A stretch of 63,233 nucleotides of DNA, filler included, from Nemertoderma westbladi (Eukaryota > Animalia > Xenacoelomorpha): assembly GCA_032718475.1 (NCBI GenBank). It is 4 parts of 4 records of this genome, joined end to end, with 100 filler letters (N's around TTAATTAATTAA, not from the genome) between each part and the next. Parts side by side here need not be neighbours in the genome. Positions count along the whole stretch, not along the records: positions 25,278 to 46,493 come from JAUCBJ010005685.1; positions 46,594 to 58,938 come from JAUCBJ010003466.1; 2 more parts are not named here. One strand, written 5' to 3'. Shown piece by piece: positions 21,349 through 55,279 of the stretch; the first letter of the stretch is position 1; each line of letters begins with the position of its first letter. The position numbers were made by a program, and so were the translations under genes. Below the pieces are notes generated by a model that made no database searches, had not been told where the DNA came from, and saw nothing but the letters and a program-made list of their open reading frames with translations.

Positions 21349-24300
21349 ATGGATGAAACTCTGGTCAATCCGAACATTTCGGACGGTTCGGAAAACGGTA
21401 TCATCGACGACAGCCAAGCCTATCATGATCCGGATCCGGCGAGTATAGGTGTAAGTACAACCGACCATCTCCAGCTCCACTCCACTGCCATTAACATTCA
21501 CTCTGACAATGACGACAGTAGACCGACAAACCCAACAGGTAGCGGTAGGCAAAGAAATCCTGTAGTTAGGCCTACCTCCGACAATGTACCGGTACGCCAA
21601 AGGGTTTCTGCTACCGGTGTGCCTACTTCCGGTACCGGTGGGCCTACTTCCGGTACCGGTGGGCCTACTTCCGGTACCGGTGGGCCTACTTCCGGTACCG
21701 GTGGGCCTACTTCCGGTAATACAAATCCTTATTCTGTTTCTCAGAATGCGTTTGAATCTACCCAATTACCATTACAGCCTAGTAGACATAGAACACGTAA
21801 GCATTCTATGGCTGATAGTGTACATTCAAACGGTTCTCTTGTATCTTCTACAGCTACCCAGAGTTATAACAGGCTTAAGCAAGAACATGCAATTGCTAAA
21901 CTAGAGGCCAAACAAAATATAAGACGTGCTGAATTAGAGGCCAAAGACAAATTAGATTTATCTAAATTAAAATTGGAACAAGCCGAGCAGGAAATGGCTG
22001 AACGAGATCTAGTAGACTTCAAAGAGAAACCTGCAATTCCAAGCCCCTTTATTCAGCCGGCGGGGCTTAAAACTGAAAACAATTTTTCAGCAATTAATAC
22101 TGGCCCCAGCATGCCTAATATAATGTTTAATCCCGCTTCTACCCCCTGTTTATCACCAATTCTGCCACTGCCAAGTTTAGCTATTAGTAATAGGCCTATT
22201 ATAGTTGGTAAGCATACTGATATTAATACCCCTGTAACTGTAGTGCCTACACCTTATTTTACACAGCAATCTATATATAGCCTTCCTAGCCTTAGTAACG
22301 CTTATAGTACTAGGATTGTCCCTAATGTAGATAGTTATCCTAGACCTAGTGTTAATAATAGTAATACCAGTAGCAATATGTCAATTACAACACCGTTGAC
22401 TACTGAATTATTATCTAGTTACCATATCAATCATAATGTAGGTCGTGGCAACCACTCTCATCCATCCAACCCAATAAGTGGATACAATTCTTTCTCAGGC
22501 CAGCCTACTGGGGATATAGGTATTTATAGTATGTCCCCACATATCGCCATGGGGGGACCTTCTCAGCCAAATCATCCCTTCCATAGTCAAGGGGGCTATG
22601 GATGTCCTTCTACCGGTCTTCCTCCCAGTGGTAGCAGTTATATCAATCCAAATTTATCAAACATAAATTCTTCCTCTGTTGATGGTATATTTTCAAAGAC
22701 TCTTGATACTTTGGACAAACTTAACACTAAGCTTTCTCTTCCACCTCCTCAACCAAAGTCTTTTGATGGCAATCCTGCCAACTATATTTCTTTCTTGGCA
22801 ACTTTCAGAGCTCAGATAGATTCCAAACCTCTTGATGAATATGATAAGTTGAATTATCTCTTGCAGTATACCACAGGCAAGGCTCATACCCTTATTGAAA
22901 TGTATAGTGGTCTTCCTAACGGATACTCCAGTGCTTGGATGGCCCTTCATAACAGATATGGCCACCCTAGTGTCATTATCCAAACTATTCTTGATAAACT
23001 TACTGTCAAGACAGATTTAGGTGGATCAGCAACCCAGCGTAGAGAACGACTCCGTAATTATGCTGATAATATTATGTCTAATATTGCAGTTCTTCAGCAA
23101 CTATCAGATAGCAATGAGATGAACTCTTCAGCCAATCTCAAACAAGTTGCATCCAATCTCCCACCAGACATCCATCGTAGGTGGTGCCGCCATGCTCGTA
23201 GTTATCGACGCTCCCATGGTAACCATGAACCTACCCTCCAAGTACTAGCAGCATTCGTAGATGAAGAAGCAGAGGTCATCAATGACCCTGTGTATGTTCC
23301 CCATAGTTCACACTCGTCCACATACTCGTCTACTTCTACTGCACAAAATCAACCAAGTCAAAGGTCGCTAGCACCTACTGAACCAAAACCTAAGGTCACT
23401 ACCCTTAATATAGATACCATAAAAACATGCACAAGGAAATGCATGAAGTGTAATGGTTTAGATCATGGTATTTCTTCATGTCCAGAATATCTTGAATTAT
23501 CTCTTGCTGACAGAAAGAAAGTTGTTCAGGATAAGAAATTGTGTTATAATTGTCTTTATTATGACCATAACCCTTCAACTTGTACCTCTAAATACCATTG
23601 TAGGACTCCTGGATGTTCCAAACGACACCATACAAGCCTTCATAATCCTGATGCTGCAAAGACAAAGTCCAACAATTCTTCTTCAAGTTCTATGAATAAG
23701 AATAGCACTACTTCAAAGGAAACTAGCAAATCACCTGCTAAGAAAATCACTACAGATTCAAACTTTGTACAAGGATCTATAGCATCAGAAGAATCAGAAC
23801 AGGTTGGCATGTCATCCATTGTTGACTCTGAGGTCCTTTTTTCGAAACAGACCCCTTCTGTCTGGCTTTCGGTTGTTCCAATTAGGCTTTCTTTCGACAA
23901 GGAAAGTGTTTCTACATTTGCCTTATTGGATGACGGTTCTACTTCATCTTTCATTGACAAATCTGTCATTGACCATGTTGGTATAATCCCACGTCAAACA
24001 TCATTACGATTGAGTACATTGTTAGATATTGATAAACCTGTCTCAGTCGGGGAGGTATCATGTTCAGTAACTCCTGTTCCTGGCAAGTTAGATACTGATC
24101 CAAACTTAGTTATGAGGTTCGACAAGGTCTATGTAACTTCAAATATTAAGCGTGAATTTCTTCATGACAGCAAGCACATTGACCTGCAAACTTTTCCTCA
24201 TCCTTTCCCCCTCTCTTTGGAATTTTCTCATCCCAAAGTGGACATTCCATCCATCACTGTCCTCATAGGTGCAAATTACCCCCAGGCTTTGTTTCGCGAT

Positions 24301-25177
24301 AAGCATAAGTGGCCTGAACATCCTAACTCAGAACCTTCTGCTATCCATACTCCCTTTGGTTGGTGTGTAATTGGCCCTGTGGGAAATGTTTCCCATCTTC
24401 CCAGTGTTAGTGTCCATCACATAGTTGCAAAGGAAACAACTCTACTCAGTAAGGAACTGGAACTACAACTTAATCAATTCTTAGGACTAGATAAATTCGG
24501 TACAACTACTCCATCTGATTTTCTTATGGAAAATGATGAAGACAAAGCTTATTCTAGGGACGAACTCAAAGCACTACAGATGCTCAAAGAATCAACCAAA
24601 CTTATTGATCATCGCTACCAAATCGGAATGCTTTGGAAGCAATATCCCCCTAAGCTTGTCAATAATTACCCCTTAGCTATGTCCTGTGTTCTTAGTCTTT
24701 TGAAACGATTAAAGGATAAGCCTGGCAAATATCAGCTTTATCAGGACAATATTGACCAGTACATTTCTAAGGGGATTGCTCGTAAACTTACAGAAGATGA
24801 TATTCCTGCTGGTCCTCAAACATTCTATCTTCCCCATCATTTCGTTGAAAATGTTAACAAACCAGGACATATTCGAATTGTTAATGATGGCTCTGCTCTA
24901 TACAAAGGTGTTTCTTTAAATAATCAACTCATGGATGGTCCCAGCCTTTGTTGTTCCATAGTCGGGGTATTATTGCGATTTCGTATTGGTGCTATTGCTT
25001 TCATCGCAGACATAGAAAGCATGTTCCATCAGGTGAAGGTCACACCACAAGATTCTGACAGCCTGCGGTTTCTTTGGCAATCTCCAGGTGCCAGTACTAT
25101 TGATACTTATGCAATGTTGGTGCACATTTTTGGTGCTCGTTGCTCTTCATGCACTGCAACTTATGGTGTTAGACGTT
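21349..25177 (+). CDS. BEL/Pao gag-pol polyprotein (Gag, zinc knuckles, aspartic protease, RT N-half), truncated by assembly gap
   Basis: FDGNPANY...KLNYLLQY Gag core; CxxC..H..C knuckles and HHTSLH; ALLDDGS protease; YLPHH, RIVNDGS, ADIESMFHQV RT motifs; open for >1270 codons. Confidence 0.95.
21611..21717 (+). repeat. 21-bp in-frame tandem repeat (PTSGTGG x~5) in gag
   Basis: cctacttccggtaccggtggg units. Confidence 0.9.
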
Positions 25178-25345
25178 NNNNNNNNNNNNNNNNNNNNNNN
25201 NNNNNNNNNNNNNNNNNNNNNTTAATTAATTAANNNNNNNNNNNNNNNNNNNNNNNNNNNNNNNNNNNNNNNNNNNNAAACTGTATTTAATGCCTACACT
25301 TGCAACCTTATTGCCTACTGCAATAAGATAATTATAAACTGTTAC

Positions 25346-26508
25346 TGTTCGCGCTTTTGAAGACCTTTAGCAGTTTAACCTGCCAAATTTTATATGTCTT
25401 TTAGTTAATTAAAACCACTTTAGCATACGACAATAATTTATGCTAATACGCAAAACATTAGCCGAAATCAGCCCATGCGCGATCATTCACCCGATGGATC
25501 TACACCCGGGAGACTGAATTCGGATGCTTGAATTGTATTATTACAGTGTAAGGTTGCAGTGTATACCTAATGTATTATTCGATAGATCGTTAATAATTAA
25601 TCTCTGACAGATATTATTGGCTTTCGGGAAATATTAACAGTTCCTTTAGGACGTGGCGCTTTATCTATTTAAACAGAACTAAGACTTATACTAAAACGCA
25701 ACGATACTGCTTATGATTAAAGTATAAAGCGTATTCTTTAGGAAATACTTTGTTACCAATCACAATCATACACACTATTCTGCCGACAGTCAGTATATTT
25801 GATCACACATAAAGAGAGCAGTAATTGACTCACGTAGGGTCTGCTAAATAACATTGGATTCAATACACACCACATTAATATAAATCGCAATTGTTATGTA
25901 TAGCCGGTCTCTCTAACCTGTAGTGTTATCAAGAAAATTGGGAATTGGGTGATTTATCCGTATTATCCAAATAGCAATATTTCCATCAACAAATATTTAC
26001 AATTGATAACTGACGGTAAAATAACAGTACAAGCAATATGATTAATGCAAAAGTATCAAGATTAGTTAATGAGTATGATTATCAAGTTAAATTAGTTCGG
26101 TAACAGTTTATACTTTCGATAATTCAAGCAGTTTACGGTACAGCAGTATCTATCCAAAAATGCCGGTGTTTCTGGCTTAGACAGCAATAACAACAAAGTA
26201 TCAAGAAAAAACAGTAAGACTGAACACTCTCCTTATGATCGGCAGAAAAGCTACACGTCGACAGGAAAAACCGCCCTGATTGGCCCAAGCCAAACAAAGA
26301 ACCACGCGTCCAATGGCTGTTTCCATGTCAGCAACCAGCTGCTAGATGTCGTAATATGAATCATCACGGCTAAGCTGTGAAAGGTGGTTGGTGCATTACA
26401 AGTTTTTTGTCTTACCATGTCCACTAAAACACGTATATAGCAGAATTACTTTTATGTCCGTTAAAACCCCTGTAAAGGTACCTTGCGGGCGAGGGGAATA
26501 TATATACA
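25346..26508 (-). mobile_element. 5' LTR of a further BEL element related to element 2; body lost in the gap
   Basis: Shares the terminus tgttcgcgctttt..gacctttagcagtttaacctgccaa with 33517 and 46362, and internal similarity of ~25780-26115 to 33568-33905; right boundary approximate. Confidence 0.7.
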
Positions 26509-27662
26509 GTTAGAAAACCTTTTTTAGAGTATTCCAGCGCCTGGGGGGGAACTGGCCAGCAAAGGCAAACGTATCAGTTATCCCACAAAAGCTTTTACAC
26601 ATGTGGTGCTCTGCCCCATTATGTTTTGCGGCCGAAAAATGCAAGTCAGAACAAAACTTTTGGTACCGAGTACCACATTGCTAATATATACTGTACTACT
26701 AAAGCGAATCAATTTCACGAACCATTTAGGGCTTACATAAATATCGTCTGATCGATATATTTTGGAGATACTTCATTAATTTTTAAAATTACTCAATTGA
26801 TAATATTTTTAGCTGGACAGTGTGTTGCAGCTATGTCTTAATGATCTGTTGAAACAATAACTCTCATCTCGATGATAGATGATTTATACCCATACATAAC
26901 GACGTATAATGCTTTTATTAATATTTTATTTCACTTCACATCCAGCAATTCTGGTCCTTTTAATACGCATATATTTCCTCTAAATTTAAATTTAATACCC
27001 ATATATTTCATCTAAATTTAAATTTAATACGCATATATTTTATCTCATTCCATATGACATCCAGTCTGTCTCATAATTATTAGCAATGCCCCTTTAATGG
27101 AATATTTCTTATCTATTATACTGTATTTGTATGACCAACATTAAAATACAGTAATAATTTTAATTGGGTGTATTTTAATGTACATTATTTATTGACTCAC
27201 ATTTTAAAATACGTATGTTTTTAACTATTACTTTACCTTTAGTACTTTACCTATTACCTTTACTATTACTTACTTTTAATTATCTAACTGTATTAACTAA
27301 AGTTAATTTGTCAGCATTTTATGTTATCTTTGTTCAAAGTTACAGTATGGTGTAAATTTATATTAATAAATAATAATAATAATATTACATTAGTTATTAT
27401 TTATAAATATAATGTAGAACTTCGATCTTGACGCCTTTCAAACAGGTGTCTGAGCAGTTCCTACTGACAACTCATCCTCTTGTAACGAACGTAACAACTA
27501 CAAAACAAATATATTGAATAACTTATTATTAATAACTTATTTAAGGGAGTAAAGTGAATCTTTGGGCCAAAACGTCCGACAAACAAATCTTGTATTTCAT
27601 TTATTGGGCCGAAACGTCCTAGGCCAAAACGTCTTAGACCGAAACGTCTGTTACCCAAAATC

Positions 27663-30177: not shown

Positions 30178-31572
30178 TTAATTCAGATCGACCACATTTA
30201 ACGCCTCTAAAGTTTCCTCAGCGTCTTCGTTATCATCTGGGAGGGAACTCAGATCGATTGTGGGAATAATCTTTGGCATATCCACCCGTTTCTGACGTCC
30301 TTGAGCGCTTTTATGCCGCTGACAGTAGTTACTCTTACACGATTTGGTGAAAATCTCCTGACAGAACTCCCCGTGGGAAATCTCGAACAGACAGCGCCGG
30401 TACCGGGTTGGGTCGTTGGGGTACCGGAGGTGCGGCGTCCGCCGTGTTCGGACACCGGACGTCCGGGCGGTTTGCACCTTCTTACTGGACGCCCGTACAA
30501 CCTGCACTACTCCCTTGTTACGCGGCTCCACTCGCGGAGAACTTTCCGGCGAAGTTTTACCAAGCTTCACGATTTTTATTTTGCGTTTTGTAGATTTTTT
30601 ATTAGTTTGCTTAGGTTTACTAGAACTCAATATTCTTCTAGAAGTTTCTTTTTGAGATTCTCGAATATTTATAACACTTGCAGATTCTCTTAATTCGTCT
30701 GCGGTAACTTCATCACGAGATGACGATAAACTAACAATAATTTTTGGCGACTTTGTCGCTGATTTATAGAAAGGCCCCGCCCCTCTGATACCGGTACCGG
30801 TACCAGCCTTAGCCACGCTCGATTTTAATGAAGTTGAATTAGTTTGACTTAAATTCGATTTAATTTGGGTTTTATTTTTAGAAAAGTCATATAAATCGCG
30901 GTCCCCACAAGGAACGTTTACTCGAGAGTCCAATAACGAGTTATCCTCATCGGCTTCTATCCAATTACTAGACGCGAAATTAATTGTATCGAGTTGCCCT
31001 GCGAACAATGAATCGAGTCCAGACGTCTCCGGAACAACTTCGAACTCTGTGTTCGATTGGTTTAGAGTCGACAGGTTGCTCTCTGATGTACTACTGCATG
31101 CGTTGTTGTTGTCTGTAGTAGCCAAGGCACCACTCCGTTTCGCAGAATCTTCGTTGAGTATCAGTTGATCTAACAAACAGACTTTATGCACCATTACAGA
31201 CATCAACCTCGCTTTGCACCGGTTGAATTCACTCCTGAAACACTCTTGATCGAAAAGCAACAATTTCATTTTTCTCCTGAGTGTGTGGTAGTTTTGCAGT
31301 GTAGTGAGTTTATCAGGACTTTTATTCGAACCATCTTTTCGTTTCGCTGTCCGAATTCTGAATCTCTTTAAACGCAAACTTTTACTTCGCTTCTTCGTTT
31401 TGGGTTTGTCCACCCGCACATTGGATTTTCTCTTCGTGATCAACTCTGCGCCGTCGCTGTTACATACCGGTACCGGTACTTCGTAATGAGTTTCTGGAGT
31501 CACATTGTCGACATGCGCAGTAATTATGTTACTGACATCATTAGTGTTAGTGGGTACCGGTACATTATCCAT
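30178..31572 (-). CDS. Intronless 464-aa basic protein with INO80E-like coiled coil and C-terminal C3H zinc finger
   Basis: Uninterrupted ATG-to-stop ORF in stop-rich surroundings; aa ~94-141 YHTLRRKMKLLLFDQECFRSEF..RL....K..LLDQL...E resembles the INO80E N-terminal helix; C-terminal CLFEISHGEFC...SNYCQRH. Confidence 0.75.
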   Translation of the reverse strand: MDNVPVPTNTNDVSNIITAHVDNVTPETHYEVPVPVCNSDGAELITKRKSNVRVDKPKTKKRSKSLRLKRFRIRTAKRKDGSNKSPDKLTTLQNYHTLRRKMKLLLFDQECFRSEFNRCKARLMSVMVHKVCLLDQLILNEDSAKRSGALATTDNNNACSSTSESNLSTLNQSNTEFEVVPETSGLDSLFAGQLDTINFASSNWIEADEDNSLLDSRVNVPCGDRDLYDFSKNKTQIKSNLSQTNSTSLKSSVAKAGTGTGIRGAGPFYKSATKSPKIIVSLSSSRDEVTADELRESASVINIRESQKETSRRILSSSKPKQTNKKSTKRKIKIVKLGKTSPESSPRVEPRNKGVVQVVRASSKKVQTARTSGVRTRRTPHLRYPNDPTRYRRCLFEISHGEFCQEIFTKSCKSNYCQRHKSAQGRQKRVDMPKIIPTIDLSSLPDDNEDAEETLEALNVVDLN

Positions 31573-31879
31573 TTCAGCATTTAGGCCCTATCTCCTGATA
31601 TCTGTACCACCGGTTTGATTGATTTTTTCCATATATAAATATATACTGTACTGAATATATACACAATACTGAATACGGTATAGGCATACATAAATCACAA
31701 TTTACCGTTTCAACGTATGCCTTACGTATCCACGTTCTATACATTACATTGGGCGATTTGACATACGCGTAGTCGAATACTGTTTCCTGATTGGTCCAGA
31801 TGAGATACGAGAGAAATTTCATGCAAAACGCTTAGGCCTCCGTTAAATTAGATTTGACACAGAGAGCCCATGGGACCGG

Positions 31880-33137: not shown

Positions 33138-36100
33138 GTTCTCCGCCCGGTCAATATTTACGATATCTGGATATGACAACAATGTTAAGAAGCGCCCGCA
33201 GGCGCGTATTTGATTCAACGTCGTCAGAAGGAAATCCGAAGGCGAAAATCTTTCCAAGGTTCGGTTCCTCGAGAGTGGCGTATTTTCGATCTGTAGTACT
33301 GTAGTAGGCCTAGCCGATACAGCACTATTTATGAGGCATTATAATTTTATTATAAATCAGCATACGCTACTAGTACTATAAAAGTACACCATGTCCCGTA
33401 ATATAGTGTCATTTTCTGATGACACGGACCCCCCCCCCAGATTTTTCTACAAATCTTTATCATATTGCTTGAAATTTGAAATACAACTAGTTCCACTCAC
33501 CGTTGATGACCCCATGTGTTCGCGCTTTTAGACCTTTAGCAGTTTAACCTGCCAATTTAATCCAACCCTGCCGTCACTGATTTTGATCATATATAAGGAA
33601 GATTGCAACTGACACACGTAGGGATTATGAAATAGCATTTAATTCACACAAAACCACTATAATTTGAGTCACAGTTGCTACCGGTAGACCCTTCCTCTGC
33701 TTACCTCAGTAATCAAGAAAGTTGAGGGGTTTACGATTATTTGTCGGTATTCTCCAAATATAACATCCATTAATATAAACAGCAATTAACACAATATAAA
33801 ACAGCATTAAAACAGTAGTGCGGTGAACAGTCAGTAGGTGTTCATGAAGTGTAGTTTGGTGGTATATTGAGTTTGGTTTGGTGATTCAGGTTAATAGATT
33901 TACGTTCTTATAACTAAGGCCATCAGATGTTCTTGGGCCAAAGTCTGAAACGTCCATACTTAGTACAGAATTCTGAGAGGAATCTAATTCTCAGAAAAAC
34001 GATATCGTTGCGTTTCGAACACAATTCCAGGTTTCTTAAAGTTAAATCGCATGACGACGAGTTCTACCGATCGCACTAAACCATCATCGGATATATGAGT
34101 CTCGATGATACGATTTGTCTGCCACCTCTTACGGGGAAGATCTGATTCCATGATAAGGACCATGTCTCCGGCGCTGACGTTTTCTTGCTGCGCAAACCAC
34201 TTTGTTCGAAGTTGTAGCGTAGGAAGATAATGTTTTTCGAAATGGTCAGCGAAACGACGGGATAATAACTGCATAAGTTGCCAAGTTTGTCGGCAGTATT
34301 CGTCTCCATCTGTTATTTCCGATTGCGGGAGCATGGCTACAGGTTTCTTTAGTAGGAAATGCGTGGGTGTTAGCGCTTCTAGGGAGTCGGGACTCGATGA
34401 GACTGGCATAAGCGGTCTCTCGTTGAGATAGGCGGTGTTTTCTTCCATTAACGTCCGCAAAAGTTCGTCGGTGGGATACGCGCGGCATGGAACTATAAAG
34501 TGAAATGTGGTCTTTACGCTATGTATGAGTCTCTCCCAACTTCCTCCCCACCAAGGGGCGTCGGCGGCGTTGAAGGTCCAGCTAGATGCTGTTACTCTTA
34601 GCTGATCGTCCACCTGTCTTTGGTTCCAATCCTTTACGTAAGCTTTAATCTCGTTATTGGCGCCTATGAAATTAGTTCCTTTGTCAGATCTCAGAGTGTT
34701 GCTAGTCCCAAAATGAGCGATTTGTCGGCGTAAACTCAGTATGAAGCTGTTGGTAGATAGATCGTTCAACATATCTAGATGAATCGCTCTACAAGTCATA
34801 CAGACAAAGATGACGCACAATCGCTTGACTATAGCCCTAGCACGGTATACTTCAATAGGGCCAAATAAATCCACACCAGTATTAGTAAAGGGTGGTTCAT
34901 AACAGCTTACTCGTTCCCTAGGTAATTCTGCCTCTCGCTGTGTTAAAGGCCTACTAAATGATTTCCTACAGGGTATACAGTTCCTAAGAACTTGGTTTAG
35001 AGCTCTACGGGGCTTATTGAAATAATAGCGAGTTCTAATTTCGCTAAGAACTCGTTCTTTACTAGCGTGGTAAAGCTTACTGTGAACATCTACAATCATC
35101 TTGATTTGTATTTCAAGATTTCTAATGAGTATGGGAAACCTAGTGTCAAAGGACAATGGAGCTTTGGTTAATCTCCCTCCGACAAGTATTAACCCATCTA
35201 TAATTGTGCTAGAGAAACGATCCCTTAAGCGCATCTGTGGATTTCTTAACAACAGGAAATATCGTATCGGAATCCTCGTAACATTGAAGGAGTCTCAGTA
35301 TCTGCTTGTTGGTCTCATCATGTTCTTGGTAACTGATCTTCTCAGTCAGAAACCTATCAGGCAGTCTATAAGTGGGAAGGTCTTTAGTAGCATGGACCTT
35401 TTCAGCCACTACTGGAGCAGTATCATTAGCGATCTTCGTCCTGGAATAGTGATGATGGAAACATCTTTTCAAATACACAAGGGCTTTGCAAAGCCGATTC
35501 CAGGAGCTATAATGATCTATCGCCCTTTGTAGGAGAGGAGAGAGTCCTTGGGAGACATCTGGTGTTCCAGATTTCCAGTCTCTTTCTCTGATTTCTATAA
35601 CGGATTTATTTATAGTTCGAGTAGCATCCATGGAAGAATTTAGATCCACAGTGGCGTCACCGGCGGTGTGTAGCACAGACAGATCTATCGCTGGCTTAAA
35701 CAGCTTTGATTTACTCGTCCGGGTTTTCGGTTTGACTTTCTCCGCTCCCTTGGCTTGTCTGATTTCCGCTGTGGTGAGATGAGGGGGCCATTCCTCCTCT
35801 TCTTTACATAGGAAGTCGGGTCCACCTAATCAGTCTGGAGTATCTATCAATTCTTGAGGAGTTGCTCCTCTGGAAGCGATGTCAGCTGGATTAATCGTCC
35901 CAGGGGAATGTCTCCATTGATCTATATTAGACCGACTGAGTATAATGGCTACTCTGTTGGTAACAAAGACACTGAACTGACAGACTTCATTAGTTATAGA
36001 CTCCAGAACGAGTAAAGCATAAGACCAATAGACAGTTTTCTCTAGTGGATAGTCGATCTGTTCCGTTACATTCTGGCCGATGATGGCTGTAGTGTATAGA

Positions 36101-38549
36101 GCCGCCTATAACTCCGCTCTGGGAACCCGCAGTTTGTTGTTTATTAGGGCCTTGGAGGCGGCTAATGAAACTTTAATTCCATCGGGAGTTTCAACACTCA
36201 GTTAGGCTACTATATCTATTCCAATATCGCTGTCATCTCCAAAAACATGGAGTTGATAGGAATACGTGGGGAGAACGTGACTGAAATACGAGCGGGAAAT
36301 CTTAAAGTTCTCGATAGATGGTAAAGAATCTTCCCAATTCATCCACTTCTTTAGCAGTTCTCCCTTGCGTGGATCATCCCACGAGTGGTTTTCGAGCCAC
36401 ATTTGTTGTACTAAGCTCCGAGCAACTAGTATGACTGGGCTAATGAATCCCAACGGATCGAAATAAGTGTTCAGAATACTCAGACAAATCCGTTTAGTTC
36501 TAACTGGATTATCCCGTTGCTTCAGTTGAAATAATAAAATATCTCTCTCCATGTCCCATTTCAGACCAAGAGTCTTGGTTTCTGGAAGATCATCCTTAAT
36601 GAGGTCAAGGTCTTTAACACCTCAGTCTTCTACTGGGATTGATTCCAGGAATTCACGGGAGTTACTAGTGAATTTGGTTAGACGAAATCCACCTCGTTGT
36701 AAGCACTCTACCATTCCCTTGGCAACATCAATTGCTTCTTCTATCGATGGGAGGGACTTTAGATTGTCGTCCATGTAAATATCCCGTTTGATGTTGTCGA
36801 TAACCGCTTTTGAGAAGGCTTCTCTATTATCATCGGCAGTGGTGCGCACTACCGAACAAGCGTTCGAGGGGCTCGATATGATCCTGAAAGCCTGGATTGT
36901 CATCCAGTACTCCACCGGTTTTCGGTTGAGGTCTCCTTCAGGCCACCACAGAAATCGTAGGCTGTCTCGATCCCTAGCTAACGCTTTAACTTGCAGAAAC
37001 ATGCCTTCAATGTCGGAAGCGAAGGCGATCGAATATTGCAGCAGTCGTAGTAATATTCCCAACAAAGATTGGAGTAAGTTGGGTCCCGGCAACAGTTCCG
37101 AATTTATGGATTGTCCCATATAAAGGGCGGAGCCGTCAAACACTACCCGGACTTCGTTTGGTTTACCGGGCTTGGGAACGTAATGATGTGTCAAGTAATA
37201 CATTCTCTCAATTATGGGTGTTTCTTCTGGAACTCGCTACGCGTATCCCTTGTCTATAAACTTCTTTAATTAAGTTTTATATATTTCTTTAGCTCGATCG
37301 TTAGCCGTCAAATGCCGATGCAGTTGTGCGATTCTTTTTTCCGCTAAAGGTCGATTATTCATGAAGCTGGGTTCTCTCCGTCTGAAAGGCAGACCAATTT
37401 CATAATGACCTTCATCTTTCAGATAACGTGTGGTCATTACCTGAATCTGCTTGGCTCTCTCTTCTTCGACGGATAATGCTTTGTCGTAGGAATTAGGCTC
37501 TACGGCTTCTTGAGTAAAGAATCGTACGGCATGTTCATCGCGTACCTTACTATTGTACATTGGATTATTACACTATTTTCACCTAGTTCATCCTGGGGAG
37601 TGGATATCGATCCCACGTAGTAGTCGGTTGATACCTTGGATTTCCAAACCTGCATGATCCTGGAAAGGTTCAGTTTGGTTCGGAACTTTGGTTGACTAAC
37701 AAAGATATCTTCAGCTAGGTCTTTGTCTATAAAGGTGCATGTAATGCTGGAGTCAAGGAGGGCATTCACTATTAAGCTCTTCCCTATTCCATGTACTCTC
37801 AGTTGCACCACGGGGAACACTCGGATACCGACAGATGATGTTGAATTTTTCCATGAGAGCTGTCGATCCGGAATCGACAGTCGGGGTTCCTCTCCCTCCG
37901 TTTCGGTCTCATACGTAAGTGCTCGATATACGGTTGTGTTGATCATATAACAGGATTCATTTTCGTCTGAAAATTCATCGGTGTAGAATCCTTCCATCTC
38001 CGAACTGTGGTCAGTGTCGTTCACATCACTGAATTGGACATGTAGTTCGGGTTCACTTATCTGACTCGTCCGGGTCTTATCAAACTCGGTGTGCAGCAAG
38101 ATATGATGTTTCGCGCCACACTTAGCACACCTCGCGTCTCAGTAACAGGTTTTCCTTTGATGTCCTCGCCTGAGGCAGTTATAGCACAACCGTTTATCCC
38201 ACATGACATCACGTCTATCCTTTAGTTCTTTCTTTAAGAATTCTTCATATCCACTCAAGCGATATGGCCCGTCGCACAATACACACTTAGGTTTGATGTT
38301 ACTTACCTTAACCTGTGTTGTATTTTGTACGCTAGCTCTTTCTTCGGGCTTCCTCCCATGAATTCGCTTAGGAGACGTAGGGGGAGTTGTCATCTGTTCC
38401 CTCTTGCCACTGGTTCGAGCCTTAGATTTACTTACGTCTTTCCTGATCTTATTTATGTAGTAAGATCTCTCGGTGTCCTTACCACTATTCTCGTCATAAG
38501 ACGTTTGGCTTTCGTAATCATCTGTATAACACACTGGTGTTACCTTTCT

Positions 38550-40015
38550 CCTAGTAACAGGTTTTTCACTTACCTTACTTTCCGGAGTCTTCTCTCTAGA
38601 CTGTTTTATGAGCTGTAAACTTACCTCTCTGTTTAAGAATGACAGAAGGTCCGCCATGGTTGGGTCTCTATGTTGTTGGTCCATCAGATAGAGAACCTTT
38701 TTGTCCCAGCGAGTACCTACTCCACCCTTTGGGAAAGTTGATGCTACGGCTCCGACAACCATAGAACTCTGGTATTCCTGAGACTTACCCAACCAGTCTA
38801 GCTGTCTACAGATCTCCTGAATCTCATTGGAAAACTCTATAATCCCTCTGCTAGGAAACTTTCGGGGCGCTACTAATTTCGCATACAGATATCTAGCTAT
38901 GTTCGTCCTATTACCATACCTGATATTAAGTGTATCCCAAACTTGTCTCAATCTGTCTGGATGTCCAATAAACTTTAACGCCATTAACTTGTCAGATCCT
39001 TCCAAGCACTCGATGAGGAATCTAAGTTTCTCTCCGTTAGATAGCACAGAGTTCTGTATGTTATCTGTATGCTTTCGCCGTCGTCTGTATAACACACTGG
39101 TATTACCTTTCTCCTAGAAACGGGTTTCTCACCTTATTTTCCGGTGTCACAGAACTCTGGTATTCCTGAGACTTACCCAACCAGTCTAGCTGTCTACAGA
39201 TCTCATGAATCTCATTGGAAAACTCTATAATCCCTCTGCTAAGAAACGTTCGGGGCGCTACTAATTTCGCATACAGATATCTAGCTATGTTAGTCCTATT
39301 ACCATACCTGATATTAAGTGTATCCCAAACTTGTCTCAATCTGTCTGGATGTCCAATAAACTTTAACGCCATTAACTTGTCAGATCCTTCCAAGCACTCG
39401 ATGAGGAATCTAAGTTTCTCTCCGTTAGATAGCACAGAGTTCTGTATGTTATCTGTATACTTTCGCCGTCGTCTGTATAACACACTGGTATTACCTTTCT
39501 CCTAGAAACGGGTTTCTCACCTTATTTTCCGGTGTCTTCTCTCTGGACTGCTTTAGGAGCTGTAATTTTACCTCTCCATCTAAGAATGAAATGAGATCAG
39601 CCATGGTAGGGTCTCTTCGTTGTTGTTCCATCATATATAACACTTTCTTGTCCCAGCGTGTACCTACTCCACCCTTGGGCAAAGTAGATGCTAAGGCTCC
39701 TACAACCATAGAATTCTGGTATTCATGAGACTTACCTAACCAATCTAGTTGTCTACAGATCTCCTGAATCTCGTCGGAAAACTCTATAATCCCGCTGCTA
39801 AGAAACTTTCGGGGCGCCATTAATTTCGCATATAAATACCTAGCTATGTTAGTCCTATTACCATACCTGATGTTTAGTGTATCCCAAACTTGTCTTAATC
39901 CATCTGGATGTCCAATAAACTTTAACGCCATTAACTTGGGAGATCCTTCCAAGCACTCGATGAGGAATCTAAGTTTCTCTCCGTTAGATAGCACATAGTT
40001 CTGTATGTTATCTTT
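38550..40015 (-). repeat. Tandem triplication of the Gag core segment
   Basis: DNIQN.VLSNGEKLRFLIECLEGS..LMALKFIGHPD.LRQVWDTLNIRYGN occurs in ORFs 39491-40378, 39103-39483 and 38139-39095; 388-bp offset between the last two. Confidence 0.9.
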
Positions 40016-41109
40016 ATAATATTCATTATAAGGTAACCATTTCATCTCATCTCCATTGAACTTGATGACTTCTCCCACCTTTACCGCTTGACGGGCTTCG
40101 GTTCTAGCCATTTGACGTGTAAAGCTTTCTTGAGCCATCGTATTATTTAATATCGAATTATCGGTATATAAATTTCTCGGATTATTATCAGATTGGTATG
40201 GGATATCATTATCAACAGGCTTATTAATACCCTTAATAGGGTTTACTATTGGAGTTTCTACTTCACTAGCAGTATAGATGCGTGTAGGCTCCACACCTTG
40301 CGCATGAAATACTTCAGACCTAACGGGCTGACACATTATTACAGAGGGTGGTATTATACCCATTTGTATATTTACCAATTTATCGCGCTCGAGAGCGATA
40401 TTTTGCTGTACTTCTTGTAGCTCTAACTTACTCTCTCTTACTGTTCCCTTTAACAGTTGAACAGTCCCTTCTAATTATCAGACTTATTTAGAAGACTTTG
40501 TTATATTGTCTTCCAATTGCCCGAGCAATTCTTCCATCCCCCGTCATCCCTCCTCCATCCACTCTACCACAGATGTAGCCGGATGGCATATTGGGACGAC
40601 AGGGGATAGTCCATGTATTATCTCTTGCTCGGCGTCAATAACAGTCTGAGATTCTGGTAGCTGTCTACTAGACATAGGTAGTTTGGTACTGTGTAAAGGG
40701 AAATTAGAGGTAGGTTCTGGGAGCAAAGGGGTCTTTATTAAGGGAGTGGCTTCGCTAACAGGCCTAATTATTTCTGGCTCATCTACTATAGTAGGGAGTC
40801 TTTCTACTCTTATAATTTGGGCTGTTGGTTCTCTATTACTTAAGTCCACATTAGCTAGCTCCCTTCTCACCGCAGGGGGTAAGTTAGGCAACTTATGCCT
40901 GTGGGGCGCTGTTCTACGTCCGTTTGAATGAGATTTATTACCTTTACCCTCGGGATCAGTTGTATCACCTTCATCCAAGGAGGTAAATCCCTGTCTTCTG
41001 GGAGTAGATCGACTCAGTAGTTGCATCTGAGTAGCTGCCCTTTGTTTATTTAAGTAATCTTGTTTCGCCTGAAGGTTCTCCAACTCTAGTTGGACTGGCT
41101 CTTCAGATG

Positions 41110-41640
41110 CCCTCCGTTCTGCTTCTGCCACTGCCGCTGCTGCTGCCACTTTTCTTTCAGCTTCTGCCGCTTTTCTTTCAGCTTCTGCCGCTGCTGCTTT
41201 TCTTTCAGCTTCTGCCGCTGCCGCTGCCGCTGCCGCTGCTGCTGCCGCTGCCGCTGCTGCTGCCGCTGCCGCTGCCGCTGCCGCTGCCGCTGCCGCTGCC
41301 GCTGCCGCTGCCGCTGCCGCTGCCGCTGCCGCTGCCGCTGCCTCTGCCGCTGCCGCTGCCGCTGCGCTGCCGCTGCCGCTGCCGCTGCCGCTGCCGCTGC
41401 CGCTGCCGCTGCGCTGCCGCTGCCGCTGCCGCTGCTGCTGCCGCTGCCGCTGCCGCTTTTCTTTCAGCCTCTGCCACTGCCGCTTTTCTTTCAGCTTCTG
41501 CCGCTGCCGCTTTTCTTTCAGCCTCTGCCGCTGCCGCTTTTCTTTCAGCTTCTGCCGCTGCCGCTGCTGCTGCCACTTTTCTTTCAGCTTCTGCCGCTGC
41601 CGCTGCCTCTTTTCTTTCAGCCTCTGCCGCTGCCGCTGCT
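41110..41640 (-). repeat. (GCCGCT)n expansion encoding poly-Ala / AAAEAERK in gag
   Basis: Direct reading; frameshifted within the pure tract. Confidence 0.9.
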
Positions 41641-43027
41641 ACTTTCGGTCTTCTATCTGTTTTATCTTTATTTGTTCTTCTTTGTCCATTGCGATGAGAA
41701 TGCTTTCATCAAATTTAGCCTGCTCCGCGGCTAATATCTCCGCATCTAAAGAGTCCAAATAAATTTGGCTCCTTCACTATTGGGGTGAAGTCCAGCTAGA
41801 CGTCTCCTTAGCTATTTGTCACCTATAAATTGTTGATAATCCGACAGATAGATGTCAATAGCATCCTTCTTCTGAGGTTTTTCGGATACCGCCTCACCTT
41901 CCACATGAGAAAAGGTTGCATCGGTTGATTCTCCGTGGGTTATGCGTTCAGTTAGCTGAACCTTCCATTGTGTTGTTCCCTGGACTTTAGCATTCACTCG
42001 TTGGAACCAAGTCTTTACAGCCACCTGCAGCGACGTGTCTTGACTTCTCTTCGAGGCCTCTTCAAAGGCTGAAAGGATTAATCTGATCCTCAATATACGT
42101 TCTCTCAGTTGGTAAAGCAGCTCTCCCCTCTCTTGAGGTCCCTGTGGTTGTTGAAATAACTGTGTTTCTATTCGTTCCAAGGAGTTGAAGAATCCCTGGA
42201 CATATCCTGCTGCTGACTTCTTCCATACAGCGGGATCTCGGGTGTCCCTCACTACTCCCATTTGGTATAAGTCTTCCCAAGCAGCTTCCGATAAGTTAAA
42301 CGGGAGTCTGGGTCCGGGGAAGTTCCATTGAGTCTCTACAATAGACCTTAGTTCTTCCATCGGGTATCCGGCGTAACTGTCCCTGGTCGATCTCTTATTT
42401 CTCATCCAATCTGCTTGATGTTCTTCTACGGCTATAAGTACTCTAGTGAGTACTGCCCCCGGAAGAATTAGAAGTGGGTCTGGATAAACCGCTTCTTCCT
42501 TCCTTGTTCCGATCTCGGGCGTTAACTCTTCGGTGTCGGAACTAGAGTTACTACGCAGTTGAGAAAAAGTTCTCGGTTCGGGTACTGTTGTTGTTTTGCA
42601 GCCATCGCTTGGTCTCGCTTAACTTGGGCCCTAGTGCCGATAATAGACCTATGGTGCTTCACTAGCCTAGGGTCTGATACCACTACTGTAGGGATGACTT
42701 TTCTTACAGTAGGAGGGGACTTAGACTTTGGTCTGGGATGTTCCATAATTTGATCTGGGTCACAGATCGTTCTTTCCAAGAGACTATCTAACAGTGTTTG
42801 TTTTGTGTCAGACATAATTTATTTTACAGTTGAATGCCTACTACTATAATAACAGTTAAAGCAAGTCTAGGGGAAATCAGTATCAACTGTCAGTCTAGTA
42901 GTTGCCGATATCGCTACTCAATGTAACGTGGTATATATTTAATATTAGAATACCGGTATACACCTTATAGTATATATATCAGGATTATTTATTACAGTAC
43001 AGACTATGATCAATCACAGAATACCGG

Positions 43028-44204
43028 TGTAACAGCGGATTCAGTCCCCCGAAGAATCGGTCCCCCCGGACCGGATCTGCTAGCGGATTTAGTCCCCCCG
43101 GACCCAATCCGCTAGCAGATTTGGTCTCCTTAGGACCAAATCTGCTAGCGGATTGGGTCCTCGTTCGCGGATTTGGTCCCCCCACTGTTATTGCAATAAA
43201 TTCAAAATGCACTGCCAGACTGCTCCGTTCCCTTCCTCATTGTCAATGGTTACAGTACTGGCAGACCGGTTATTCAGTATGTATCGTTTATTGTTCTGGT
43301 TAGAAAACCTTGTCTGTGTAACCTTCTCCTCCCCAATTTCGTAGTACGATAAATTTATTGTAATGAGGTTATAGGCCTATTGTTTTAGCCTTTTTATTAT
43401 TAGAAAATATATCCTCCCTGCTCCCCACCTGCAAGCTAATAATATGAATGAACTGAACATGAATGAATATGAATAACTGTTACTCAGTTGGGTTTAGGTG
43501 TAACAGTTGAACTGAATATACACACCCCCCCCCCCCCCCCCCCCCCTCCGAAAATACTATCTGTAAAACCATTTATATTAGGCCTAGGTAATTAATTCAT
43601 TTAATTATTAATTAAACGAAATGACACCAACTGACCAATGACAAACCCAACCAAAGACACCTGACAACTCGAACTACAGTATGATTATTACTGTAATAGG
43701 GACAGTACAATATCTTCCTCCTCATCATGTAATCATCCCTCATCCATAATGAATCTATAATGTTGAAATTAGCCGCTTCCCTGAGTATAGTTCTCTTCCG
43801 CAACTTTGTTGAATTGACTGGATAGGCTATGTGTCATCTCCCGAAATATAATTATAGACGGCTTGATAAAGCTGCGTCCCATCGAAGTTGGCCATGATAG
43901 CCTACTGTACTGATGCGACTATATCAGTATATACAGATGTGGGAATTTAATTTAACGCAGTAGCTGGTAGCTACTGCAGTTTAATCAGTCTGCAGGTCTG
44001 ACCGATAATTTAATGCATAAGCTATGCTGCTATGTGCTATGTCAGTACCAGTACTGCTGCATTCAGCACTGTCTGACTGTACTGTAAAATTATAATTTAA
44101 GGGGGGACAGAATCCGCTAGCAGATTCGGTCCCACCGGACTCAATCCGCTAGCGGATCGGTCCCCCCGGACCATATCCGCGGGGGGACAGAATCCGCTGT
44201 TACA
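43028..44204. mobile_element. Ginger-like non-autonomous transposon
   Basis: TIR tgtaacagcggattc.gtcccc; CCGG on both sides (43024-43027, 44205-44208); subterminal ccgctagcggat repeats. Confidence 0.8.
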
Positions 44205-46689
44205 CCGGTATATAAGTTTAGCCTAATTTATATAAATATATAATAAGCTTACTATAAACACCGGTAATGTCAATTATTTAAAAATAACTGATTATCCGAA
44301 TTTTAGGAATTATTTCTCTTTACTTTATTACTGATATTAAGCAGCAGTTCAACTGATATTAACACCTAATTGATGTATAACAGGCCTACTATTTTATAAA
44401 TCTGATTGAGTTGATTTATAAATATCTATATATATACCCGTAATGGGTTTTGACAATATTTGAAATAAACGTTATTATTTCTGTGTAAGAAGTCACTACA
44501 CAGAGGCTGAACGCTCTCAGTGGAGTGCTACTTGTTAGACACTAATACTGACAGTAATTCTACTTAACTAAGTTACTTATCACTACAAATTACTTATGTA
44601 TCGGTTGAGAATACACAATCTCTAAATAAACAATAAACAAGTTACACGTACAATTTTTTAGGGTAATTTAACAAGAAATTTACGAACCAGACTGACAAGG
44701 AGTTAGAATTTCTGGTTCTTACAAACTGACAGGAAATTATGGTATTTGAAACCAATAAAGTAGTATTAAGTACGTTGTGTTGTCCAGATAAGGAAATGCT
44801 ACCGTCTGACGGCTTATAGTCTTACACTATAAGCACTACGTTATGTACCCGGAGTGTCCTATACCTAGAGGTTAATTATCGAAGCCAACCATCTAACAGA
44901 CCTATTAACCACGTTACAACACAAATATACTGCCTATGCACTAAATTATTTTCAGGAAAGCGCTGTACTCTAAACCCTAAATTAGGTACAAGCACTTATA
45001 CAACATATAACTAGCAGTTAAATATACGCGAACAGCCAAAAGAACCACGGTATCTGCTGGAATGACCGGAGCACAAAATCACCAGTCTGTCCTATGCCAA
45101 GCAGTCCTGAAGTAGTACCGGGGTTAATTTAACTATAACAGTATGCATAACAAGCATAATTACTGTAAAGAATAAACTTGGGGAGATGTAGGTTGCAAAT
45201 ACTTGCATAAACTCTGAATAATAAATATTACGCTACCCGTACAGACTATTCAAATAAAACACAGACCAAATGCTGGCAGACTACTGTCAAGCCTAAATAA
45301 ACCACAGTATATGCAATCTCCGAAATGGTTAGTTAGTAAGCGTTCTAACTACGTAGTACGACTTATTCTTTCGTGGGGGATTTACCTTACAGCACTGGAT
45401 GCCTCCACTTTCCTAACTAGCACTTTATCGGACAGACACTCTACATATACTGCAATCGCCTCAGACATAACAACAGTTAGACAATGTGACAGGATCAGGG
45501 ATCCGGACCGGGTTAATGCTCGTACGCGTCGTCGTAGGCTGATATCAGGTAACTTGGCCGAGGCTGTTAGAGAAAAATGTCTGGAGTTTGATGTTCCTTG
45601 CGTTCCAATATAAATGTGTAATAATAGCACGGTTAATGGCTGAATATGTTATGAATGATAAACCGGTAATGGCAATATATGATGACAGCATATAACAGCA
45701 CTTAGTGACGACGGTAAGACAATGTTGCCGGTCTGCACTGAAACTGATAACTGGGTAACTGAATGACAAACCGGTATGTAGGATATAATATATGATTACT
45801 TCACTCCTACGCTACCTTGGCCTGCTACCTAGTGGATGCTCTCCTTTGCCCTTATTGTGTTTCCCCTCTGTTGCTAGCCCATGCTAGCTGTGTCCCCTCC
45901 GAGGTGGTTTGACCTCTAACCTTCCTTTGTGTATGGCTTCGGGGATTGTACTGTCCCCCGATGTTGGTTTTTGATACGAGATTAATTATTGCTAATCTCG
46001 TATCTCCAACATATTGCTGAAAATGCCACTATCCCATTTTATGAGGGTAATGAGGCGGAATTGAATCCTCTTACAGACAACAATCTGGCCTACAAATTAT
46101 CTATACAATCTGAGCAGGCTTACACGCCTTCTGCTCAATATTACACTTACCGATAAATAAAACTGACAGAAATAAGTAAACCATATAAAGGAGTAAGGAG
46201 TGATCAATCCCTAATCCCCCAACAGCCTATAATATACAATATTTCACAATCAAATAATACTGGGTAAAGTACCGGTTCGGGTCAGGCCTACAGTTTACCG
46301 TCCGACCGGTACGTTTCGGTTTTATTGCCTACTCAGCAATAAAAGAAACAAAATCTATTAATGTTCGCGCTTTTAGACCTTTAGCTGTAGCAGTTTAACC
46401 TGCCAATTTAAATGTCTTTTTAATTATGAATCGACTTTAGCCCTTACCAATTACCTGGTGTACTGAAGTTACATCCGCCGAAGCCAGTCCGTGNNNNNNN
46501 NNNNNNNNNNNNNNNNNNNNNNNNNNNNNNNNNNNNNTTAATTAATTAANNNNNNNNNNNNNNNNNNNNNNNNNNNNNNNNNNNNNNNNNNNNATACTGT
46601 ATAACAACCTGTAAAACCCCTTATACAGTAAATAAGGTATTCTAAAACTGAAGCTAAGGACCTACACTTGATAAAAGGCTATGGGAAGA

Positions 46690-52099: not shown

Positions 52100-52783
52100 A
52101 AGCCACCCCCCCCCCCCCCCCCCCCCCCTCACACGGAGCAACTGTGACCGAAACCTCTGTCAGCTGTCTGCAACTTGTTGGTGTACTTCGCTTCCCACAC
52201 GACGAGTCACTTGTTACACAAGAATAACAATTATTTTCAAAGTATTTATTTTTTAAAGTATCAAATCCAATATTAGCTAAAAATAAAATACAGTAAAATG
52301 GGATGAAACTAAAGCGAAATTGCCCAAAGGTCCGCATCTAATACCGCAAGGAACACTGTCTCATCATTAATTTGTATGATACCAACCTGAGCTTTCAAGT
52401 TTCAATAAGCCACTCATTCATTCAGCTTAGCAAATTAGTAGAAAAGGGTAGGCCTACACTTTATTTCTATCAATTAAAAACTTAGTTTTTAATTAACATA
52501 AATATCTTAAACTAATTAAATATTTTGTAGAATGGAATAAAAGTTGTAAAATATGTTTCAGCTAGCAGTTAAACACGTAAACTTAGGCATAAATCAGGCT
52601 TTTGTTGCGCAATGCAACTTATTTCCGACCCTCTCACAAGGACTTTTTTGCTTCAAAAACCAAGTTGCAGCAACAAAAGTTGCAGTGAGGTGGCCCAACT
52701 GGTTTTAACATGCAAATATAACTGCGTTTGGTCTATTAAACAGATTTTGTGAACTTGTCAAGTTTTGTTCTACATACTATATA

Positions 52784-54044
52784 ATGATGTGTTGGCTACC
52801 GGCTATTCTTCTCTTACTTTTAACCTGTGTTCGTGTTTACTCAGAGACATTCACATCGACGACGGCGATGGAGCAGCTACTTATCCAAGATATTGAACTC
52901 GTCAAGGTCTTTGGTAAACATATCGAAAAGGAAGATGTGAAGATAAAGAGATTGAAAACGTATTTCGTAGAGATGCAGGGAGGCAGGGGATCCTACGATG
53001 AGAACAACTACATTGGCAACCCAATAAACGGATTTAAGTTATTGCGGAAGTTTTCAACGGTGTGGAAGGAGGTGAAGCAGTTACTCACTCCTGTAACCGA
53101 GCCAGCGAACAGTCTTATTGACATACTGGATGTATGGAATAAATGGTTTCCTTCTAAGGAGGATGTGTCTGGGGCTGCAGCCGCTCTTATTAGACTACGG
53201 AAAACCTACCAGCTCCAAGCGTCTGATATGATAGAAGGAAACATTAAAGGGGCTGCGCCAACCAATGAGACACTCTCTGCTACGGACTGCTTTGCGATTG
53301 GTCGACAAGCCTATATATTCAAGGATTGGCAGGAAAGTGTAGTTTGGTTGAACGAATCCCTTTTTCGTTTAGATAAACATCAAATAAATTATAACCAAAC
53401 CAAATCAAGAATACTTGAGCAATATGCCCGTGCGTTGTATAAACTAGGTGACGTCACGGACGGTAATAACTCAACGCTGGAGCGTCTATCATTGAATGGA
53501 AATTATTCTAGAATATTACATAGTTTGGGACATTATAGATTTGAAGATTATAATAACCCGAAAATTAATCGAAAGTTAATGTTTGACTCCAGCTTAACTG
53601 CGTCGATATCTAGATCTGTGGAAATCTCTAAAAGTATCGACTACTTTGATTTGAATTTACTACAGGAAACTGTACAGCGATCAATTTTGTCTGAAATCTA
53701 TGAGAGTTTATGTCGTGGAATGGCGCCACCACTAAAACCAAAAATTATATCGAAATTACGATGTCGGAATGTAGCGAGTAGAAAGGCGAGGCTAATTCTG
53801 AAGCCACCGAGAGAGGAGGCGTTGTACTTGGATCCACGAATCGTTGTTTATCACGATATGATATCCGATAAAGAGATACAAATTATTAAACAATTGGGAA
53901 ACTCTAGATTGGAAAGGGCGACAGTTGTTGTTAACGGGAAAACTGTGACAGCGGTGAAAGGACGGGTGCAGAAAAGTGGATGGTTGAATCGAAGCGAACA
54001 CAAGGTTCTGGGACGACTGTACGATAAAATGGAAGATGTTACAG
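52784..54044 (+). CDS. P4HA: Prolyl 4-hydroxylase alpha subunit, exon 1
   Basis: Signal peptide; FTSTTAM, GNPINGFKL, GAAAALIRL..TY, DCFAIGR, YESLCRG, PRIVVYHD, LERATV; phase-1 donor ACAG|GTAGG at 54045. Confidence 0.93.
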
Positions 54045-55279
54045 GTAGGAAGAGTCGGACACAGGTAGGTATGTATAGGAGGTACAGATATGACAGTTAA
54101 GACTACTGCGTGGGTTGGTAATGACCGTAGCAGATGCTATCAGCTACCAACCAGTCAAGTACTTACGTTTATGATAATTTAATTAATTAATGTTATTTAT
54201 ACGAAAGGTTATTTATTAAATCATTTAAACGTTTTCGTAAAACCTTCATTCACATCACATCTCTCCGGAGGTCGTGAGGGGCCCGGGTCGGGTAGTTCTC
54301 CTTTCGGTAAGAATGCTTTAACTTTGGGACTAGTCAGGGCGCATCTCCTCTGCCTATACAATCATATAAGGTAGGAAAACATAGAATAGGGCCTACTACA
54401 TTTATTATTATTATTTAATGTTTTTTTTCTCAATTTATATATTTTTATTTTTTCATTTATTTATTTATTTTATTTATTTATTTTATTAATTTATATATTT
54501 TCTCTATGATTTTTTTTCAATATTTGGTTGGAAGTGCAATTTGTCTCAATATCTGAAATCTAAAATAATTTTTTCCCAATATGTTTTCTCCGAGCCATGC
54601 CTTATTTTATCAATATCTGATTGGCCGCACCTCCAGGCTCTCATTCTGTATCCGTATGATATCGGGTACATTTTCTCAACTACATATTTAGGATTCTAGG
54701 CCGGATGCTAGTTCAACTAACCCTAATTAAAATAACAATCCAAATACACTACACCATAAGCAGTAGACTACATGCAGGCTACAGTACGCCCATTCCCAGT
54801 TTACACTACGTGGTGGCGGCCAATCAGATATTGAGCATAAAAAGACAGGACGGGCGTACGGGCTCATCCAATCAGATATTGTAAAAAAAATTAACGGTTT
54901 AGCCAATCAGATATTAAGCCTAAAAACATTGAGAAGTTTTACTTTAAATTTGACCAATCAAATACATTGAGAAAAAACATAGAATATTAATACTAAATGT
55001 GTAAAATGAGTATCAGTTCCCTCTAGAGTGTATACAGTAGTTCTGGGGGGACCCCACTGGAAATAAGTCGTCAGACTTTGAGCGTAATTCCTGGCCTAAC
55101 GGCCGAAGAAAACTTTACTTTACTTTATTTTTCTTTTACTTTATTTTACGATGAAGACCTTCATTGCACGGTTATGTAGAAAGTTTAAATAATTTATTAG
55201 TATTGTTCATTATATTTTAGATAATAAATATGATTTATCTTCTGTAAAATAATATTTCATATATAAATTTTCTGTCCAG

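Follow-up and report, generated by a model that had tools for sequence, protein, structure and literature searches.

Two related BEL/Pao copies of Nemertoderma westbladi whose primer sites complement a segment of their own LTR: a candidate case of self-primed reverse transcription

Two BEL/Pao copies on one contig

The window analysed here, a stretch of 63,233 nucleotides from Nemertoderma westbladi, is a series of contigs separated by N-gaps that contain a TTAATTAATTAA linker (25178-25277, 46494-46593, and 58939-59038), and one of these contigs (25278-46493) carries both E1 and E2, two related BEL/Pao copies on the minus strand. E1 comprises an LTR of 1308 bp (25346-26653, minus strand; TGTTC...GAACA) that belongs to a high-copy family, and the 67 nt of its leader that are present before the gap, while E2 (33517-46493) is a decayed copy. 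The string TGTTCGCGC, which forms the LTR end, occurs at 25346, 33517, and 46362. The minus orientation was assigned because the E2 genes and both E2 LTR ends fix it; a plus-strand reading of the E1 LTR, prompted by a TGG motif after the LTR, was dropped. Across position ~26640 the summed depth of contigs, a quantity that does not equal copy number, fell from 284,081 to 4,974 in run X1, from 241,084 to 1,558 in X2, and from 4,565 to 86 in X4, and this ~50-150-fold fall is consistent with the boundary of the E1 LTR. For both copies, the outer end is located within or past an assembly gap.

The coding part of E2 lies on the minus strand between its LTRs and comprises a gag region (38139-42618) with an alanine-rich tandem stretch and a locally repeated DUF1759 part, the DUF1759-bearing pieces being found at 38139-40474, a reverse transcriptase/RNase H region (35295-37500) with a YMDD motif, and an integrase region (33984-35294) with Integrase_H2C2 and DUF5641. 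The decay of the copy is seen in the in-frame stops of the RT/RNase H region, with seven in the main frame of 35209-37500, where identity to BEL loci is ~40-43%. Only the 3' part of the 5' LTR is present (46362-46493, minus strand), and since this LTR is truncated by the assembly gap, neither its copy of the candidate primer segment described below nor a target-site duplication is visible. The 3' LTR is a remnant (33517-33955, minus strand) whose start near 33950 is tentative, as the start shows weak likeness to the start of the E1 LTR (38/2000 shuffles) and equally to another repeat (23/2000). This remnant is without most of the counterpart of E1 26137-26653 and without that of E1 25390-25780, the latter being partly kept in E2's own 5' LTR; a reading of the internal LTR deletion as a spliced-out intron was dropped after inspection of the breakpoints. 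The 3' ends of the two E2 LTRs (46362 vs 33517) are identical at 44 of 44 aligned bases, save for a 6-nt duplication.

E2 has the gag-RT/RH-IN order between direct LTRs with CA ends that characterises BEL/Pao, together with a BEL-type gag (DUF1759) and an integrase with a C-terminal DUF5641 (E-values 6e-12 and 2e-19), and 337 homologues were found, those listed being mostly DUF5641-bearing. A chromovirus-type pol of Ty3/gypsy, by which the Tf1/sushi group is defined, was not found in E2, the domains and homologues of which are those of BEL/Pao. The coding part of E1 lies beyond the gap, and E1 is linked to the group of E2 through the likeness of LTR and leader. Rfam and ARAGORN gave no match in the window.

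Primer sites, LTR complements and matched changes

The primer-binding position of E1 (25333-25345, minus strand, 13 nt) abuts the LTR, and that of E2 (46351-46361, minus strand, 11 nt) abuts the 5' LTR; neither contains TGG, and no site for a tRNA 3' end (TGG) was found near the LTR end in either leader. Both are perfect complements of a candidate self-primer in the LTR of the same copy, at 26100-26112 (minus strand) in E1 and, in the 3' LTR copy, at 33891-33901 (minus strand) in E2, giving own-LTR pairings of 13 and 11 bp, respectively. The two E2 strings are present where an earlier note on this DNA had placed them, abutting the 5' LTR and within the 3' LTR: AAATCTATTAA has its sole occurrence in the window at 46351, and TTAATAGATTT is found at 33891 and in one unrelated match at 15137. 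In E1, ATAAACTGTTAC is located at 25334 and GTAACAGTTTAT at 26100, and on the sense strand the leader starts with GTAACAGTTTATA in E1 and with TTAATAGATTT in E2. One position further inward, both E1 and E2 have a C-A mismatch, and the pairing therefore ends at the junction of LTR and leader. Just downstream of the primer site, E1 carries a leader hairpin (25307-25327, minus strand) with a TTATTGC/GCAATAA core, and E2 has a hairpin with the same core (46320-46344, minus strand) in which loop length and outer pairs differ.

When LTRs were simulated by a first-order Markov model, none of 3000 reached 13 nt for E1 (maximum 11) and none of 3000 reached 11 nt for E2 (maximum 10). Furthermore, a single one of 937 offsets in the E2 leader has a complement of at least 11 nt, namely offset 0, at the junction. 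Predicted duplex energies are -13.9 (E1) and -8.4 kcal/mol (E2) for the own pairs vs -3.9 and -2.2 kcal/mol for the swapped pairs; the E2 duplex is weak and AU-rich, the strings of both copies are AT-rich, and the E2 duplex is extendable upstream with mismatches. The complements are contiguous in both copies, the best strict spliced match being 5 nt in E1 and 0 nt in E2, and a splice-made primer was rejected for these copies because no intron has to be removed to form the complement and any extension of it requires weak sites.

The primer sites of E1 and E2 differ at 4 of 11 positions (1, 5, 8, and 11), and all four differences are matched in the partner segment, with no G-U intermediate among the changed positions, bearing out the claim of the earlier note that both sites had changed while staying complementary. 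Under independent divergence, four matches out of four would have a chance of ~1e-5 to 5e-5 before register slack is allowed for. The comparison is one between a single pair of subfamilies in Nemertoderma westbladi, with the primer site and partner segment of E2 taken from the two ends of a single decayed copy. As to homology, E1 25780-~26150 and E2 33568-~33935 align colinearly with 26100 and 33891 in register, and the whole local LTR alignment (~67% identity) scores 209 vs a shuffled mean of 97 and a maximum of 125 in 100 shuffles, demonstrating homology of the LTR region between the two copies. With both segments masked, the register was recovered within 3 nt in two of four scoring schemes and came out ~28 nt apart in the other two, and the likeness of the flanks just upstream of the segments is not significant (1230/2000 shuffles score as high). 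The proposed homology of 33891 and 26100 thus stands for the region, while its exact register is supported in half of the masked schemes and leans on the segments themselves (7/11 identical) and on the two primer sites, the position of which is fixed by the LTR end. The earlier note had regarded the co-variation as an argument for functional pairing; in this one pair of subfamilies it shows that two sites are coupled, whether through copying or because pairing is under selection, which is not proof of priming.

Family contigs and related BEL loci

Contigs of four runs were aligned to 26000-26170; of these runs, X1, X2, and X4 are DNA runs and X6 is without coverage of the segment. Just 3' of the candidate primer lies a hypervariable stretch (26048-26095, minus strand) with many loose ends, where depth drops from 546,061 to 5,514 in X1 (~100-fold), from 222,392 to 3,253 in X2 (~70-fold), and from 15,784 to 0 in X4, a dip that arises partly from the E1 copy being atypical there. 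Depth recovers at 26096-26107, and the primer segment together with ~24 nt upstream forms a block common to the family copies (26099-26136, minus strand), with depths of 476,058 (X1), 314,912 (X2), and 14,995 (X4). Several of the listed contigs start matching at 26099, one of them after 81 unlike letters, and further loose ends are found at 26134-26136. In all three DNA runs, the edge of family conservation at 26099 coincides with the predicted 3' end of the primer. The contigs yielded no additional variant pair of primer site and segment, and no splice joint is listed around the segment, which speaks neither for nor against splicing there.

An integrase alignment fetched 98 related loci (80 from metagenomes and 18 from genome bins), which probably represent animal DNA present in the samples. 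Thirty-six of them have a terminal repeat and were inspected, and 11 have a well-defined LTR end, established by divergence of both copies in ten cases and by the contig end at ACA in L005; L002, L006, and L025 were excluded for unclear LTR ends. The search for self-complements allowed offsets, as pairing required from the first base misses offset cases; L033, for instance, scores 0 in the first-base-anchored test because its run starts at offset 4. Two of the 11 ends are of the tRNA type, with TGG sites and contiguous own-LTR complements of at most 4 nt (L036 and L092), two have contiguous own-LTR complements at offset 3, 11 nt long in L031 and 10 nt long in L048, and seven have a complement of 10-15 nt only across a GT-AG intron (L005, L028, L033, L044, L066, L068, and L088), the intron donors being GTAAG and the YAG acceptors pyrimidine-rich. 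Each of the nine well-defined non-TGG ends has a complement in its own LTR, 10-15 nt long and beginning 0-4 nt past the LTR, and cross-LTR controls gave at most 9 nt, except among the related loci L028, L044, and L066. Less weight is given to the splice-type ends of L075, L084, L094, and L098 and to six TGG-type ends, which were inferred by the search itself. The TGGTCC...CGA sites of the tRNA-type elements are presumably complementary to tRNA-Tyr. The predicted loop measures 60-290 nt in the related loci vs ~750 nt in E1, and AATAAA follows the junction within ~10-40 nt in 4/7 of the splice-type relatives listed. Unanchored complements of 10-13 nt at places other than LTR ends are many and were treated as chance. 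One match of a viral contig (L001) to the LTR-end pattern, with no further likeness to the window, was likewise judged to be chance, and protein scans of viral contigs found no relative.

An unrooted RT tree of 22 rows, comprising 20 of 21 labelled loci (L088 missing), E2, and E3, a third element in the window, separates eight TGG-type loci and E3 from all non-TGG elements by a branch that is not strong (89/75). E2, decayed and on a long branch (1.05), is split from 12 non-TGG loci by a 98/96 branch and therefore falls between the splice-type and tRNA-type groups. In an integrase tree, from which L091 and L099 were dropped as too short, the place of E2 is unsure because the tree was built by a quick method and the E2 branch is long (1.76). 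Both trees are made up of elements other than the named BEL/Pao references (Pao, BEL, Tas, Suzu, Sinbad/Sailor, Dan, and Flow). BEL elements lacking a tRNA site may form one clade, a possibility raised as a question in the earlier note with which these data are compatible.

Self-priming, its alternatives and known systems

By analogy with Tf1, the primer of which is 11 nt long, we consider it likely that E1 and E2 use the own-LTR segment instead of a tRNA as primer of reverse transcription, and we hold with still greater confidence that priming is self-derived in one geometry or another. Self-priming, which the earlier note had also put forward, is the best explanation of the co-variation, and the same association is seen in related BEL loci of other samples. 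As in Tf1/Tf2, the segment would fold back within the genomic RNA to pair with the primer site, probably aided by Gag, and the RNA would be cut at the 3' end of the segment (~26100), probably by the element's own RT/RNase H, whereupon RT would extend through U5/R before transferring to the 3' LTR. During plus-strand synthesis the primer would in turn be copied to give a new primer site, and a change in the LTR segment would thereby be passed on to the site. Such copy-back of a primer into the primer site is known for tRNA primers. The variable stretch beside the predicted cut may, speculatively, be a scar of strand transfer. Several observations count against self-priming. In an equilibrium fold of an RNA of 834 nt that begins with the segment, the pair forms with a probability of 0.03 (37 C) or 0.17 (20 C), falling to ~0 with three longer 5' ends, in a model that is weak at long-range prediction and ignores Gag. 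No TATA-like match is present ~30 nt upstream of the E1 segment, such matches being located at 26506-26499, at 26439, and on the segment itself. The long loop of E1, the weak E2 duplex, the dependence of the masked register on scoring parameters, and the place of E2 outside the splice-type group on the RT tree also weigh against this reading.

Since selection on structure also yields compensatory change, the pairing might instead be a selected long-range RNA structure acting in packaging, dimerisation, circularisation, or translation control, with priming by other means, e.g., a tRNA fragment. The second conserved hairpin beside the primer site and the mismatched upstream extension of the E2 duplex would suit such a structure. 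However, neither LTR end has a TGG site nearby, the pairing has no mismatch and stops exactly at the LTR end, which is a requirement for a primer but not for a structural stem, the four changes lack G-U intermediates, and the pairing is absent in TGG-type relatives and present in non-TGG ones; we therefore regard this reading as unlikely.

A second possibility is that the segment primes in trans, either as a short RNA derived from the LTR or as the 3' LTR copy, and not by fold-back of the 5' end. The ~750-nt fold-back is not favoured in the equilibrium model, and the AATAAA that soon follows the junction in four of the seven splice-type relatives listed means that short LTR transcripts could exist. 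On the other hand, the sense strand of the E1 LTR has neither AATAAA nor ATTAAA, and the sole tested system of such kind works in cis according to the available text of PMC5341516, making priming in trans improbable as well. Finally, a match that arose by chance, or by an inverted template switch that happened once in each copy, and has no function is very improbable despite the AT-rich strings, the additional TTAATAGATTT match at 15137, the uncertain masked register, and the decay of E2, given that 0/3000 simulations reached the length seen in E1 or that in E2, that the pairing occupies equivalent places in two subfamilies whose letters differ, and that 9/9 well-defined non-TGG relatives show it.

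Self-priming as the preferred reading would explain BEL elements without a tRNA site, and we reason that self-primed elements would be free of host tRNAs and of control by tRNA fragments. E1 and E2 would further provide two natural, mutually incompatible pairs of primer and site. Tentatively, a large branch of BEL/Pao may have swapped tRNA priming for a self-primer that is either contiguous (the E1/E2 family, L031, and L048) or spliced from an LTR intron, in which case the E1/E2 family would record a switch of priming mode; as a single tree holds all three types (contiguous, spliced, and tRNA), how tRNA priming arose and was lost becomes testable. The tRNA-primed BEL/Pao elements (L036, L092, and probably E3) share the gag-pol domain set and the TG...CA LTR ends with E1 and E2, whereas their TGG site lies 0-8 nt past the LTR and a self-complement is lacking, the reverse of what is seen in E1 and E2.

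According to the parts of the literature available to us, self-priming has been demonstrated in Tf1/Tf2, and certain gypsy and copia lineages are predicted to share it; a BEL/Pao case, if true, would add a third LTR superfamily. In open-literature listings, no report of BEL/Pao self-priming was found, and in the available text of BEL/Pao papers, terms for the primer site had no match in PMC3118150 and PMC6238403 and referred to PCR primers only in PMC554778. As far as its available text goes, PMC6317226 lists self-priming for Tf1/sushi, Tcn1, and TAR, and describes a screen for complements of 10 bp or more whose start lies 0-5 bp past the LTR, values within which E1 and E2 fall. By that screen, the plant lineages Tcn1 (Ty3/gypsy) and TAR/Houba/Osr-1 (Ty1/copia) were predicted to self-prime; they differ from E1 and E2 in superfamily and host, and no BEL/Pao element is among them in that text (PMC6317226).

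The closest parallels are Tf1/Tf2 of Schizosaccharomyces pombe and Tj1 of S. japonicus, in which, as in E1 and E2, the primer site adjacent to the 5' LTR complements the element's own LTR and a tRNA site is lacking (PMC4600332 and PMC5341516, in the text available). In Tf2 the self-primer in R is reported to pair with the primer site and to be cleaved by RT (PMC5341516, available text), Tj1 is proposed to self-prime as Tf2 does (PMC4600332, available text), and the Tf1 primer is not removed, to judge from a reference title cited in PMC11042837. In Tf1/Tf2 the primer is a mapped RNA 5' end and its cleavage was shown, whereas the candidate primer of E1 and E2 may be the capped 5' end of the RNA or lie inside it, and the ~750-nt loop of E1 is unlike those of Tf1, Tf2, and Tj1. 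These three elements belong to the Tf1/sushi group of Ty3/gypsy, while E1 and E2 are BEL/Pao (DUF1759 and DUF5641). In conclusion, the mechanism proposed for E1 and E2 is Tf1-like, yet by their domains and homologues the elements themselves fall outside the Tf1/sushi group.

E3, a probable tRNA-type element, and a TGG-type motif beside the E1 LTR

A separate BEL element on the plus strand, E3 (18299-25179, +), has a probable LTR at 18299-19153 (+), a long gag-RT open frame at 21337-25179 (+) and a TGG-type site, that of the tRNA-primed class, at 19160 (+), where no self-complement longer than 7 nt was found. E3 clusters with tRNA-type loci, and both priming types therefore appear to be present together in the genome of Nemertoderma westbladi.

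A TGG-type motif also lies on the plus strand (26654-26675) directly after the LTR of E1, the minus-strand BEL/Pao copy with a candidate self-primer. This motif and the probable primer site of E3 (19154-19175, +) have TTTGGTACCG in common, and the distance to a GAACA is the same for both. The junction between the E1 LTR and the motif is bridged by contigs in the sequencing runs X2 and X4 (summed contig depth of 132 in X2, which is not a copy number). The motif may reflect a nested insertion at the primer site of another element, or a single LTR may serve both orientations.

Other features of the window

The leader of the decayed copy E2 carries a MITE-like insertion (43021-44211) with imperfect inverted ends of about 110 bp and internal repeats. 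Open reading frames matched an INO80E domain (30178-31587, -), the N-terminus of prolyl 4-hydroxylase in one long frame (52709-54100, +) and a LINE-type endonuclease (56392-57225, +).

Splice-like sites in E1 and related loci

Within the E1 LTR, splice-like donors were identified at 26415 and 25833 (-) and a splice-like acceptor at 26009 (-); an intron running from 26415 to 26010 would take the candidate primer of E1 out of a spliced RNA. Summed contig depth in X4, as distinct from copy number, was over 25950-26640 approximately 10-30 times that of the other LTR half, and this unevenness suggests that a subfamily whose R/U5 differs is abundant.

BEL integrase contigs were present in 18 prokaryote genome bins or genomes (L082-L099), probably as host contamination. 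Among the related BEL loci, L005, L028, L033, L044, L066, L068 and L088, as well as L075, L084, L094 and L098, have a primer site whose complement is an exon-exon junction formed across an intron of 71-1022 nt in the element's own LTR. Locus L031 has a splice-acceptor-like site about 14 nt upstream of its candidate primer, and in L031 as in E1 the sequence CGAAC comes after the candidate primer (stretches 753-768 in L031 and 26095-26112 in E1).
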